The notes beneath the pieces are model-generated. The model saw only the letters and a list, made by a program, of their open reading frames with translations. It made no database searches and was not told the DNA's origin. Of a DNA stretch of 64,000 nucleotides, positions 19,587 through 55,799 are shown piece by piece. The position numbers were made by a program, and so were the translations under genes. Source of the stretch: Candidatus Latescibacterota bacterium (lineage in GTDB: Bacteria > Latescibacterota > UBA2968 > UBA8231); contig CBDAOB010000004.1 of NCBI GenBank assembly GCA_965197905.1, positions 1,216,001-1,280,000 of the forward strand, read 5' to 3'. The first letter of the stretch is position 1. Each line of letters opens with the position of its first letter.

Positions 19587-19928
19587 TCATTCTCGAGGAT
19601 TCTCCTCTGAGGGGGTTGGGTCGATCGCGTCTCCCGCCCAGCAGAAAGCGGCCACGGTAGAAGGCAGACCCAGGGTTCCGGCAGCGAGAGCCACGACCTG
19701 TTCAACCTCCTCAGCGCTTATGCCCAGTCCCAACGCCTTGCGCACGCTGGAGTGTACCGCCCCTTCGCGCATGGCGCCGATGGCAATACCCAGCTTCACC
19801 AGGCGGCACGTGCGATCGTCGAGAGGACCGTCGTGGCCGGCGGCGGCAATGGAGTTCCACGCTTCCCCGAGTTTTGGATAGCGGGCGACGAATTCGTTAT
19901 ACGCTTTGGGCGGTTTGGGTGCAGTCAT
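19587..19928 (-). CDS. Carboxymuconolactone decarboxylase family protein
   Basis: GPLDDRTCRLVKLGIAIG, VHSSVRKALGLG, GTLGLP. Confidence 0.8.
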   Translation of the reverse strand: MTAPKPPKAYNEFVARYPKLGEAWNSIAAAGHDGPLDDRTCRLVKLGIAIGAMREGAVHSSVRKALGLGISAEEVEQVVALAAGTLGLPSTVAAFCWAGDAIDPTPSEENPRE

Positions 19929-20024
19929 GGGGTAAGACTCCTGTAGCGTTGTGGTTAACGTCTTGCGGTGGCTCGGATCGGCCCGTCCTCCCTGCAAAAA
20001 CTGTCGACGCGATCAGAACCCGGT

Positions 20025-22895
20025 TCACTTCTCGATCAAGCTGTGGATGCTGGCCACCGTGGCAGGCGACCATCCGGAGTGAACTTCGGCAATCCGGCCG
20101 TTCCGATCGATTATGTACGACACCGGAATGAATATTTCGTCGCCGGAGAACAGGTATGCGAAAATGCTCCGGTCGGTAGTGAAGATGGGATAGGTAATCT
20201 TCATTCGTTTTAGGAAACCGGGAATCCGCTCTCGTTGTTCGTCCATGTCGAGGCTGACTCCGAGCAGTTCGACGCCGGAGTCCCCAAGCAACGGTGCCAG
20301 CTTTTGCAGCTGGGGCATCTCCTCGCGGCATGGGGCGCAGTAGGTCGCCCAGAGATTGACCAGATATCTGCGATCTGCGCGCCGAAAACTGTGGAAATCG
20401 GTGTCGCTTCCCGTTGCGTCGACCAGGGGAATATTGGGGAAAATCTCGCCCGGCCCGAACCTCAGTGCCCGTAGAATCGGATCTTCCGCCGCCATGGGAT
20501 CGGGGAGCGTAAACCGGTGCTCTTCCCGGGCAAGGTAGCCCGCTTCGCCTTCCACCAGCAGGATGGAAGATTGCGCCGCGATATTGGTCAGGCGTCGTCG
20601 TTTGCCAGAGGGCCACTTTACCTCGATCCACTCCGCCTCCACGTCCGCGCCCAACCCGAACAGCAGGCGCGGATCGCTCTGTGAAACGAAACCACTACCC
20701 CCTGCTTTGATCTTGGTGAGCACCCCCTGCGAAGTCTTGACCCGCACCTCGGTACCGTAGGCATCGCGCCCGCTCTCCCTCCCGTCCAGGGAGACACGTA
20801 GAAACGCTGCATCCTGACCCACGTTGTTTCTGAAGAGGTGGTGTATCTGCCCCTGCAACGTGGTGAGGAAGATGTCGTAATCCCCGTCATTGTCGAAGTC
20901 GGCATAAGCGGCGCCCCGTCCATCCGTAACCGAATCCAGACCGGAAAGTCCGGAGATATCCACAAAACGCTTTCCCGAATCGTTGAGATAGAGCTTGTCG
21001 CGTTCGAATCCGCTGAACGAAAACCCCTCCTGAAAGATCTTGCCCATATGATCGTTCTGGTAGAGGTCGTTGCCTGCGGCCTCCATGCCTACCGTAGACG
21101 CCAGCACGTGGCGCCAAAAGAGGCTTCAGGTGTCCCTTAGGGATTTGCCGGAGATAAATCCGTTGGGGGCATGGAGATCCTCCCAACCGTCGTTGTCCAC
21201 GTCGATGAAACCACCCCCGAAAGCCCAGCCGGCACCCAATCCCCCGACCTCCTGGCTCACGTCGGCGAACCGCCCCCCTCCAAGGTTCCTGAAGAGGGTG
21301 TTGCCGGCGGCCAGCTTGAAAAGCACCCGGGTATCGGTCAACTGATCTGGCTGCTGGGGAAACAACCTCTTGAGGATCCGTCGACCGGCCGTGGAGGACA
21401 TGTTGGTGACGTGCAGATCGAGGCGACCGTCGTTGTCAAAATCTCCCATGGAAACGCCCATCCCATTTCCCGGATCGAGCAACTTGCGTTCAGAAGCGGC
21501 ATCGAGGAATCGGTTTCCCTGGTTGAGGAACAATCCGTTTTCACCGAAATCATTGGCGACGTAGAGATCCATTCGACCGTCATCGTTCAGGTCGCCGAAT
21601 TGAGCGGCGTAACTCCAGCGCCCGTCGGCGACGCCCCAGGCAGCGCCGCGTTCTTGAAATCTGCCGTCGCCCTGATTCACAAATAGTAGGTTGGGGGTAC
21701 CGTTCGTCGCGCGCGCCCAGGAATCGGGCATGATGACGCCGTAACGATTGTAGGAGGCGACATAGATATCCGGCAGACCATCGTTGTTGACGTCGCTGGA
21801 GACCGCGCTGAACCCCTGGGCGGCATGGTCGACTCCCGCTTCCACAGAGATGTCGATGAACTCCAGGTTGCCGTCCGGGACCAACCGATTCTCGAACAGC
21901 ATCTGAAAACCGGTGGCGGCCAGGAACAGATCGCTGTCTCCATCGTTGTCGAAGTCGAGAAAAAGCGGCGCCGTTGCCGTGGGTGTAATCTCCACGGCGG
22001 TTTCAGCGGCCACTTCCCGGAAGATGCCGTCCCCGCTGTTGATGTAAAGAAAATTGCGCCCGACGCCGGTAGTGAAAACGTCCAACAACCCGTCCCGGTC
22101 CACGTCGACGACGGCAACCCCGTGGGCGACGAACTCTTGGTTGCCGGGCTGGCCGAAACGGGGGACCGAATGGTACACGCCGGCGGAAGAGCTGACCTCA
22201 CTGAAGAGATCGACGCTCGCCGAGCTCAGATGCAGCTCCTTTATCTCGAATAGATCGATACGCCAAACCCCGTTGTCATCGACGGTGGCCTCGATCTTGG
22301 CTTTGGCCTGCAACCAGACCCTGAGTCCTTCCTCGCTGCGACCGACCACGAAGAAGAATATCCGTGCAAAGGCGCGCTCGTTTTCTCCACCCGCATCCGC
22401 CTCAAAATGGGCCTGTTTGACCTTGAACCGAACATCCTCGATGGAGCTGAAGCGGTCTAGAAAGCTCGACCACTCCTGCACAAACGCCGCCTTGTCCAAT
22501 CCTGTCCGGAGCGGAAGCGCGGGCTCGTCGCGGATCCATTTGATCGCGCCGACGGGGGCTGCGGTTTCGGGTATGCTCGTGGCGCGAAGATTCTCGGAAA
22601 AATGCGTGGCCAAGCTGTCCACCTCGCGTGAGAGTAGGAATGTGGACAGACGATGCAGCTGGTTGGCCAGGGATTCGGAAAGATCCTCGATCCGCTCCAT
22701 CCGCGGGCGATCGACCGTCGTCGCCGCGTCCGAGCGATCAACCCCCACGCAGGCGAGGGTCAGCACGGTCAAAAAAAACGCCGCGATCACTAGTTTTCCA
22801 AGAGCTTTCGGGCTACCGGCTTGAAATCGGCCCGTTGGGCGGTGTTCGACGGCAGGGTACGGGAAGGGTTGGGAATTCGTGCCATGGTTGGTCAA
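20025..22895 (-). CDS. FG-GAP/CRTAC1 + ASPIC/UnbV + TlpA-like thioredoxin fusion, putative selenoprotein (TGA at 21128-21126)
   Basis: ORFs 21126..22895 (DxDxDGxxD repeats) and 20025..21107 (ASPIC/UnbV; WATYCAPC) share a frame and are separated only by a TGA (...SLRDT-U-SLFWRHV...). Hairpin 10 nt downstream. Confidence 0.75.
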
Positions 22896-54830: not shown

Positions 54831-55799
54831 CTAGCTCGGCACATTGCTCTTGTAGTCGAGGGGTAACTCGAAATCGATCAGTTCCGGAAAGTAACACTCG
54901 TGCGCGTCGCAAGCCTGGAATCGCAGACGCGCCTGTACTGTAAACGACTCTTTGCGATGGTTGCGAATCGGCGCCGTGAGCAGAATGCGGCCATCGTAGA
55001 TCGGCAGGGTCTCGCCGAGACCTTCCAAGAGAAGGAGTCTTGGCTCGGGATAGGCAACATCTCCAAAGTGGACATCCCCGACCTCCTGAAAGGTGAGCGT
55101 GGTCGGAACGTAGTTCTCCGGGAGCGGACGGCCATAGAGATGGCTGCCTTCTCTGACCTCGATCTCAGCGGTGAAGGTCAGCACCTGGCCTGGGCGGACG
55201 GTTCGCGCGGAGAGGTAAGCGGTCGCATCCACCCTTTCAGAGCTCGAAGTCTGCACCACGCCGCGGCTGGCATCCTCGATTCGAAAGACATCCCCGAGCA
55301 TACGAGAGACCGCATCCCGGACGCCGTGATTGGCGTAGAAGGAACGATCGATAACGGTGCCATGTTCGTCGGCCACTATAGTACCGGGAAAAGGGACCCC
55401 GTACCAGGCATGATCCACAGGGATGTGGGTGTTGAAAATACCGAAACGACGGATGACAGCGCTATCGGTATCGGCCAGTAGCGGATATGAGATATCGTGT
55501 TTCTCCGCGAATTCGCCAAGAACCTGCACCGTGTCATAGCTGATGGCGCAGACCCGGATGGCGTTGTTCTCGAATTCCGCTTCGCGTTCCTGCAGTTCGA
55601 CCAACTGCGTTCGGCAGGGAGGTCACCAGGAAGCGCTTCGATGAAAAAGGATCAGAGCCTTATTCGTCCCATCCGGCTGGTAGCGAAACGGCTTGCCGAA
55701 CTGATCGGGAAGGGTGAATTCGGGAATCCGCTCGCCGACCTCGGGACCCTTGGCAAACTCTTCGCTGGTGGGATCGCCGGAATTTTTCAGCTCTGCCAT
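54831..55799 (-). CDS. Peroxiredoxin-like (AhpC/TSA) selenoprotein with DsbD-N-like C-terminal domain; Sec at TGA 55625-55623
   Basis: AAGGAG RBS and ATG 55799 read MAELKN...GPEVGERIPEFTLPDQFG...HRSASW-U-PPCRTQLVELQ in frame with ORF 54831..55604; SECIS-like hairpin. Confidence 0.88.

Follow-up and report, generated by a model that had tools for sequence, protein, structure and literature searches.

In CRTAC1 and the ASPIC/UnbV proteins, an UnbV_ASPIC domain comes after seven FG-GAP blades that bear DxDxDG loops. The accessible part of PMC10477339 mentions no catalytic role for CRTAC1. We describe here a bacterial gene of this architecture whose reading frame contains one TGA codon that, judging from sequence comparison, is very probably decoded as selenocysteine (Sec). 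The gene lies in a 64,000-nucleotide stretch of DNA from a Candidatus Latescibacterota bacterium (assembly GCA_965197905.1, contig CBDAOB010000004.1, positions 1,216,001 to 1,280,000), the whole of which is called the window below. The literature used for comparison covers CRTAC1, ASPIC proteins of sponge symbionts and Solibacter, and the enediyne cassette (accessible parts of PMC10477339, PMC3909097, PMC3174227, and PMC9682884).

The encoded protein resembles several known systems, each in part. As in selenoproteins that depend on SelB and a selenocysteine insertion sequence (SECIS), there is an in-frame UGA, a hairpin that fits the bacterial SECIS (bSECIS) model, Sec machinery in the host, and conservation of TGA alone among stop codons; the family label is different, however, and Sec lies outside any UxxC or CxxU motif. 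Cys homologues are rare in this family, whereas almost all selenoenzymes have them in far greater abundance (accessible part of PMC13188914). Database homologues are named ‘CRTAC1 family protein’, but relative to CRTAC1 the protein has an additional N-terminal SnoaL-like domain, an additional C-terminal TlpA domain, and helical inserts in blades 5 and 6, and its Sec region gave no sequence alignment to CRTAC1. With the TlpA/ResA/DsbE oxidoreductases it shares a WATxCxPC thioredoxin-like domain with Foldseek matches to ResA and TlpA, here fused to a propeller; scores against the TlpA and ResA equivalogs are about 60 bits, below the NCBIfam cut-offs of 170 (ResA) and 230 (TlpA). UGC-containing TlpA proteins (WAxxUGC) carry Sec in the thioredoxin motif itself, whereas this protein has the two-Cys sequence WATYCAPC there and scores 30 bits with the corresponding model (cut-off 300). 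The enediyne protein E4 (UnbV) has the same FG-GAP plus UnbV_ASPIC architecture and is distant; no polyketide synthase cassette occurs among the recurring neighbours of the family loci.

The family is apparently uncatalogued as a selenoprotein, and its fold is apparently new to selenoproteins. There is no FG-GAP, CRTAC1, or ASPIC/UnbV entry in the 119-family table of the 2026 selenoprotein catalogue (accessible part of PMC13188914). A term search of four supplements of deep-Sep (PMC12013277), the filter of which requires Cys homologues according to the accessible part of that paper, found no mention of the family, and neither did a term search of the main text and one possibly incomplete supplement of BSepDB (PMC13326102). 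No NCBIfam 20.0 model exceeded its cut-off for the two halves, the read-through protein, or nine homologous pieces. The literature searched, which mostly did not extend to subscription papers, contains no description of the family as a selenoprotein or of its function.

The interrupted gene

The gene has the following parts, all on the minus strand.

20025-22895, minus: whole read-through frame, 956 codons from TTG, with its terminal stop TGA at 20027-20025
22722-22790, minus: predicted signal peptide, residues 36-58, with a hydrophobic core and ending D-A-A (from hydropathy and the starts of relatives)
22218-22709, minus: tentative SnoaL/NTF2-like domain, residues about 63-226 (from Pfam matches of homologues and model topology)
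20823-22211, minus: seven-bladed FG-GAP/VCBS propeller of CRTAC1 type, residues about 229-691, with blade 7 encoded 3' of the TGA
21126-21128, minus: in-frame TGA, codon 590, predicted Sec, in the context GKSLRDT-TGA-SLFWRHVLAST (motif NGFxSGxxxxD-T-U-S-x-F-W-R)
21097-21115, minus: bacterial SECIS-type hairpin GGCGCCA-CGUGC-UGGCGUC, with a stem of 7 base pairs (bp) and the 5-nucleotide (nt) loop CGUGC starting at +18 nt
20553-20807, minus: ASPIC/UnbV domain, residues about 697-781 (Pfam PF07593, E 3.6e-17)
20028-20450, minus: TlpA/ResA-type thioredoxin-like domain, residues 816-956 (Pfam Redoxin, E 1.5e-14)
20328-20339, minus: CxxC motif C853-A-P-C856, within WATYCAPC (residues 849-856)

A sequence-only reading of the window had described two open reading frames in one frame split by a single TGA, a break inside the FG-GAP series, and a 956-amino acid product ending in a thioredoxin-like WATYCAPC domain. 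All of this was borne out, and the strand can now be added: the minus strand carries the read-through frame from 22895 to 20025, with 956 residues and one internal TGA. Six DxDxDGxxD motifs are encoded 5' of the TGA and the seventh (DFDNDGDYD, residue 666) 3' of it, and the TGA interrupts the frame between propeller blades 6 and 7. Pfam accordingly finds FG-GAP on the 5' side and FG-GAP, UnbV_ASPIC, and Redoxin/AhpC-TSA on the 3' side. The domains named in that reading (FG-GAP, ASPIC/UnbV, TlpA) stand, and the N-terminal SnoaL/NTF2-like domain had been overlooked.

The true start of the gene is probably the GTG at 22790, as judged from the starts of close relatives, which would give a protein of about 921 amino acids. 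An N-terminal hydrophobic stretch occurs in 76 of 85 truncated homologues, with a lipobox in five and a Tat motif in none. The N-terminus looks like a cleavable signal peptide and not a membrane anchor; of the two locations proposed earlier, membrane-anchored or exported, export is the one predicted. One Planctomycetota locus (L077:4876-7068) encodes a long hydrophobic, apparently multi-pass N-terminal region and has a divergent motif after the TGA.

An independent assembly contig covers 20700-21600 with 0 differences and may be the source of the window DNA. Two contigs from a second study cover the TGA region with 1 and 10 differences; none of the differences listed (40 of 115) falls at 21126-21128. 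Promoter and terminator scans were at chance level, and none of the sequencing runs listed was an RNA dataset containing the sequence.

Evidence on decoding of codon 590

The interrupting codon is conserved as TGA and as no other stop. We examined 93 genome loci, of which 90 aligned at the Sec column. TGA occupies the column in 73 of the 90 and TAA or TAG in none, at identities down to about 33%; of the other 17, two belong to the family and carry Ser or Gly, and 15 are distant repeat proteins in which the context is unrelated. Several counts reported here (column, codons, selA, covariation, CxxC tables, neighbours) include loci L046 and L068 from the unpublished genomes G066 and G079, and the Acidobacteriota background includes the unpublished genome G113; none of these is decisive. 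Among the best 120 database protein homologues, 85 have residue 589 as their last and 35 continue past it. When the metagenome collection was scanned for the motif with TAA or TAG at the Sec site, there were 0 matches in the whole collection, while a codon-agnostic scan gave TGA in 118 of 120 among the matches listed, the other two having unlike context.

In even samples of two phyla, TGA forms were present in Acidobacteriota (24 of 151 genomes) and in Planctomycetota (25 of 121 genomes), with up to five copies per genome. Planctomycetota have one TGA in 41 of 51 places, no stop in 10, and TAA or TAG in 0. The column itself was inspected in 30 + 5 Acidobacteriota and 20 Planctomycetota loci, the remaining counts being of one TGA inside the match; in 18 of the 20 Planctomycetota loci TGA is exactly at the column. 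Altogether the TGA form was found in hundreds of loci from at least three phyla, with record titles naming Acidobacteriota, Planctomycetota, and Ca. Latescibacterota, and the protein is likely a member of a widespread bacterial family. A TAA flagged in genome G013 (locus L011) belongs to a frameshifted copy whose site codon is actually TGA, and TGT or TGC codons in L080, L089, and L093 come from misaligned distant paralogues that were not tallied as Cys homologues. L011 and a second locus, L273 (genome G264), have TGA and hairpin intact and a frameshift nearby, for which decay and assembly error are both possible.

The codons that follow the TGA are constrained as well. Among 70 distinct loci, codon +1 encodes Ser in 67 (AGC 44, AGT 19, TCG 4), codon +3 Phe in 68, and codon +4 Trp in 68. 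All of them come before the earliest codon at which translation could restart, and they agree with the uninterrupted homologues; the constraint is therefore at the level of protein. Termination at the TGA would yield a six-bladed propeller.

The SECIS-type hairpin begins after a spacer of 10 nt. The bSECIS model calls for a loop of 3-9 nt, a stem of 4-16 bp, G in the first two loop positions, a distance of 16-37 nt from the UGA, and an energy at or below -7.5 kcal/mol (accessible part of PMC13188914). The hairpin satisfies all four bSECIS constraints (5-nt loop, 7 bp, loop at +18, -9.7 kcal/mol). Taken alone this is weak evidence, as the 79-nt region has a z of -0.71; among the 4097 frames of 200 or more codons that end in TGA in the genome, 209 have a comparable hairpin, 46 of them with the loop at a comparable distance. 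The real evidence for a SECIS is covariation across homologues, not the single hairpin. One stem pair is C-G in 30, U-A in 30, and G-U in 7 of the 70 distinct loci. It joins the wobble base of an Arg codon to the first base of codon +9, so that an Ala/Thr/Ser change at +9 tracks a synonymous change of the Arg codon. Pairing is seen in 92.4% of cells, as compared with at most 68% for slid partners, and the covariation score was reached in 0 of 500 shuffles, a control that ignores relatedness and takes the structure from the window's hairpin. The covarying pair is kept in 118 of 118 TGA metagenome matches among the matches listed. Similar hairpins occur in the same genome in the genes for SelD (GGUC loop) and for a peroxiredoxin-like selenoprotein (GGUCG loop).

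The genome encodes selA, selB, a Sec-containing selD, and tRNA-Sec. A selA match was found in 60 of 60 tested genomes, 58 of which are TGA carriers; 59 matches are over the cut-off and one is partial at a contig end. In three samples, from which the centre genomes and G089 were excluded, selA occurs in 55 of the 56 genomes that carry the gene and in 186 of the 253 that do not, and the single carrier without a selA match has selB and tRNA-Sec. In genome G111 (locus L128:7324-12340), selA follows the family gene on the same strand, at a distance of about 440 nt. The peroxiredoxin-like selenoprotein is encoded in the window itself.

54831-55700, minus: second selenoprotein, TGA at 55625 in W-U-P-P-C, peroxiredoxin-like AhpC-TSA plus C-terminal DsbD_N, with a GGUCG-loop hairpin

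No NCBIfam model was over its cut-off for this second protein. Read-through by Sec, as proposed in the sequence-only reading, has thus passed every sequence test run (TGA-only conservation, downstream constraint, SECIS covariation, machinery). The 10-nt spacing and the hairpin on which that proposal drew hold, as do the hairpin's sequence and its fit to the bacterial model, to which covariation is now added; the second, canonical selenoprotein in the window was likewise confirmed, and the four machinery components it named are all present in the host. Neither a TAA or TAG at the site, which was looked for in genome loci, the metagenome scan, and Planctomycetota, nor a sequencing error, which is contradicted by the occurrence of the TGA across hundreds of loci and by the agreeing contigs, emerged as a reason to abandon it.

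Predicted structure and the link between Sec and CxxC

We modeled residues 55-956 with AlphaFold2, using Cys in place of Sec and 136 aligned sequences (predicted local distance difference test score (pLDDT) 93.8; predicted template modeling score 0.89). The model has, in order, an N-terminal domain of helices and long strands, a seven-bladed propeller, an all-β ASPIC/UnbV domain, and a thioredoxin-like domain, the last of which matches ResA and TlpA by Foldseek. The propeller and ASPIC part superimposes on murine CRTAC1 (9etn_A; Z 39.4, root-mean-square deviation 2.3, 450 residues, 27% identity; runner-up Z 26.8). The N-terminal domain is assigned with low confidence: no Pfam profile matches residues 63-226 of the protein itself, SnoaL_4 is over its cut-off in P0045 and weak in P0033 among 10 homologues scanned, and a single-sequence model (pLDDT 48) had NTF2-like chains at the top of a fold search with Z 6-7.

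In the model, Sec is the first residue of a helix (590-601) that belongs to a two-helix insert in blade 6; blade 5 has a similar insert. Conserved nonrepeat residues occupy equivalent loops of the propeller (Tyr382, Arg426, Asn448-Asp449-Phe450, Met479, Met499, Ser501, Arg506, Trp557, Asp588, Glu631, and Arg660). From the geometry of propellers, these residues may form one pocket on the ligand-binding face. The seven DxDxDG motifs are putative calcium ligands. The CxxC pair of the thioredoxin-like domain contains the only conserved Cys residues, present in 60 of 64 thinned Sec-type sequences; elsewhere no column has Cys in more than four. A complex prediction with the propeller-ASPIC part of P0002 and the thioredoxin domain scored 0.00, which is no answer and not evidence either way.

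Homologues without the interruption show what replaces Sec. Cys is found at the site in 3 of 35 (P0002, P0007, and P0014), in two places on the tree, and most of the others carry Ser, Arg, Ala, or Glu; Trp was not seen. On a FastTree tree with midpoint root, from which P0130 (a false motif match) and P0125 (the same gene as L070) were omitted, the non-Sec forms are scattered in several separate places among the Sec forms. A table of 124 full-length rows, from which L011, L017, L103, L105, L107, and loci whose flanks are short were omitted, shows CxxC in 86 of the 90 Sec forms, in 1 of the 3 Cys forms, and in 2 (P0005 and L121) of the 31 forms with another residue at the site. The rest of the 31 divide into 20 that have no thioredoxin domain and nine that have a thioredoxin fold minus its cysteines. 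In nine independent pairs, CxxC tracks Sec in 6.7 on average and the opposite occurs in 0 (median p 0.016). Longer paralogues that bear tetratricopeptide repeats (L129-L133 and L119-L123) include five TGA forms, which are not part of the 124 rows and all have CxxC; in the uninterrupted ones, with Glu, Ser, or Ala at the site, CxxC is lost in four of five. Sec and CxxC thus tend to be lost together, repeatedly, as far as the sequences indicate.

Four Sec forms without a thioredoxin domain have Cys close to Sec, as U-x-C in L012 and L013 and as U-x4-C with a further Cys 13 residues after U in L264 and L265. This nearby Cys is a possible alternative resolving thiol.

These observations suggest a mechanism for an exported selenoenzyme. 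SelB would bind the hairpin and bring Sec-tRNA to UGA590, a signal peptide would direct export, and the protein would fold into a SnoaL-like domain, a seven-bladed CRTAC1-type propeller, an ASPIC/UnbV domain, and a TlpA-type domain. Sec would lie at a helix start beside the invariant Asp588, a position that would favor the selenolate, and the selenolate would attack an oxidant or oxidized substrate among the conserved loop residues to give an Se-OH or Se-S adduct. The propeller has no conserved Cys that could resolve this adduct, so that its reduction would fall to the fused CxxC, acting either in cis or from another molecule. A membrane system of the DsbD/CcdA type would in turn re-reduce the CxxC domain. 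Single-thiol enzymes with a fused or partner thioredoxin are known, such as 1-Cys peroxiredoxin and the methionine sulfoxide reductase fusions (Neisseria PilB). The likeness is in the proposed logic only, that is, a lone helix-start nucleophile with a separate CxxC reductant; the fold is unrelated, and beyond the thioredoxin domain neither sequence nor structure matches. We consider the whole chain, a redox-active Sec nucleophile in an exported protein recycled by its own C-terminal CxxC, to be evenly poised between right and wrong.

Several results weigh against this mechanism or against the evidence on which it draws. The background of selA is high, at 69-80% of non-carriers, and as the genomes are related, Fisher p values for selA are overstated. 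Five of six uninterrupted loci fold at or below -7.5 kcal/mol, and one retains a full SECIS-like hairpin. Cys is rare at the site, and two of the three Cys forms are without the thioredoxin domain; when Sec and Cys are scored together, there are seven pairs with p 0.06. The Sec rows come from genome loci and most non-Sec rows from the protein database, so that ascertainment differs. The entire conserved pocket is retained in many homologues in which Ser, Arg, Ala, Glu, Asn, or Asp occupies the site, which implies a role of the fold that requires neither Se nor S. The thioredoxin domain is missing in 4 of 90 Sec forms and in 5 of 17 intact Planctomycetota Sec loci, of which two have local cysteines in its stead, and a separate CxxC gene was not seen around the domain-less Planctomycetota Sec loci, several of which are shorter than 4 kb. 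Finally, in 75 loci and the window, no conserved gene neighbourhood points to a substrate and none is common across phyla.

The sequence-only reading also proposed that a lone Sec is served by its own fused reductase. This idea gains independent support from the sole conserved Cys pair and from joint change on the tree, is qualified by the domain-less Sec forms, and remains conjectural. Redox chemistry in a family usually treated as adhesin-like is plausible. Non-Cys residues in homologues had been named as grounds for rejection, and such residues do predominate; these forms, however, mostly lack CxxC too.

More broadly, though we would not yet favor this view, the CRTAC1/ASPIC-UnbV propellers may contain a large clade whose members are exported selenoenzymes with an active site of a new kind, a lone helix-start Sec in a propeller-loop insert that is recycled by a fused TlpA domain. 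Under the same tentative view, Sec plus CxxC would be ancestral, with repeated decay to Ser, Arg, or Ala forms and without an origin from abundant Cys forms. If true, this would reverse the usual bacterial Sec/Cys pattern, and Acidobacteriota and Planctomycetota would have in this family one of their commoner hidden selenoproteins. The family would add a widespread selenoprotein with an uncatalogued fold to those of abundant, mostly uncultured bacteria of soil, freshwater, and sea. Gene callers split such genes, as in the 85 database homologues that stop at the UGA. The CRTAC1/ASPIC-UnbV family, to which the human protein and the enediyne-cassette protein belong, would gain a marked candidate active site, and the natural Sec, Cys, and Ser variants with and without the reductase domain make function directly testable.

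Competing explanations and gene neighbourhood

Five other explanations were weighed against the exported selenoenzyme. In the first, to which we assign a minor but real probability, Sec is genuine, but its task is unconnected with that of the thioredoxin-like domain: the TlpA domain would have other periplasmic proteins as its substrates, and Sec would depend on a different reductant or a local Cys for recycling. Such a division would account for the Sec forms that lack a thioredoxin domain, for the Cys near Sec in some of these (L012/L013, L264/L265), and for the CxxC retained by the non-Sec P0005 and L121, and the PDB entries 4txo and 4txv are, by their titles, structures of TlpA joined to other proteins in mixed-disulfide complexes. 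It does not account for the repeated joint loss of Sec and CxxC, most clearly where a thioredoxin fold persists minus its cysteines, as in nine proteins.

It is unlikely, and slightly more so, that Sec is a ligand for a soft metal or metalloid on the propeller surface, for capture, delivery, or sensing, with the CxxC only keeping Sec reduced. Binding of atoms or moieties, for the most part metals, is predicted for about 20% of selenoprotein families (accessible part of PMC13188914). The loops do offer the invariant Asp588 and the conserved Met479, Met499, and Glu631, but non-Sec forms retain the same Asp and Met residues, and a second conserved Cys or His was not found near the site. The gene directly upstream encodes heme A synthase and has a homologue in two of the relative regions examined, a link that is limited to this genus and family.

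An involvement of Sec in halogen chemistry, by deiodinase-like reductive dehalogenation or by scavenging of hypohalous acid made by an exported haloperoxidase, is improbable. In its favor is a vanadium-haloperoxidase-like gene directly downstream in eight related Acidobacteriota loci, a linkage that does not extend beyond one bacterial family and may go back to one event; in the window's own genome, about 320 kb of the contig separate the family gene from the haloperoxidase-like gene. Distant relatives are also named ‘enediyne biosynthesis protein E4’, although these matches have 34-45% identity over less than half of the C-terminal query. Going by its title, a 2024 paper by Gui et al. reportedly concerns a diiodotetrayne intermediate in the enediyne pathway, in which E4 is said to have a part.

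We consider it very improbable that the TGA is a true stop, with coupled genes that restart at GTG, or that it is read through without Sec, as a leaky Trp or Cys codon tuned by the hairpin. A GTG or similar codon does lie at +7/+8 in most loci, and most uninterrupted homologues have neither Cys nor Sec. However, a true stop would be expected to drift to TAA or TAG, of which none was found, and the codons between the UGA and the GTG are constrained at the amino acid level. The propeller would also be divided between two of its blades, with no signal peptide on the second half, and carrier genomes track the Sec machinery; the absence of Trp at the site in uninterrupted homologues speaks against non-Sec read-through. 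A sequencing error or recent nonsense mutation, as might be suspected from the frameshifts near the site in two related loci (L011 and L273), has a negligible probability, as the same TGA is present in hundreds of loci from at least three phyla and the contigs of two studies agree with the window.

The genes next to the Sec propeller gene in the window are as follows.

19587-19997, minus: carboxymuconolactone-decarboxylase/AhpD-fold gene without CxxC, directly downstream; homologue in L026, L137, and L138
22956-24035, minus: heme A synthase (COX15-CtaA), 60 nt upstream on the same strand; homologue in L137 and L138
24907-27588, minus: 893-amino acid secreted protein with a matrixin-like metallopeptidase, a YNCE-type propeller, and a C-terminal FlgD Ig domain

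In other genomes, a gene for a secreted vanadium-haloperoxidase-like protein (DUF6851, VCPO_2nd, PAP2) is found at L032:7545-9086 and at L033, L035, L039, L054, L064, L065, L068, and L108. It is immediately downstream in eight such loci, mostly labelled Pyrinomonadaceae; L068 has a C-terminal fragment only. The Sec motif is absent from the FG-GAP/ASPIC-UnbV paralogues in the window's genome. Contigs C2-C5 of G000 carry about twenty other FG-GAP or ASPIC/UnbV-like genes, several of them as tandem pairs and none with the Sec motif.

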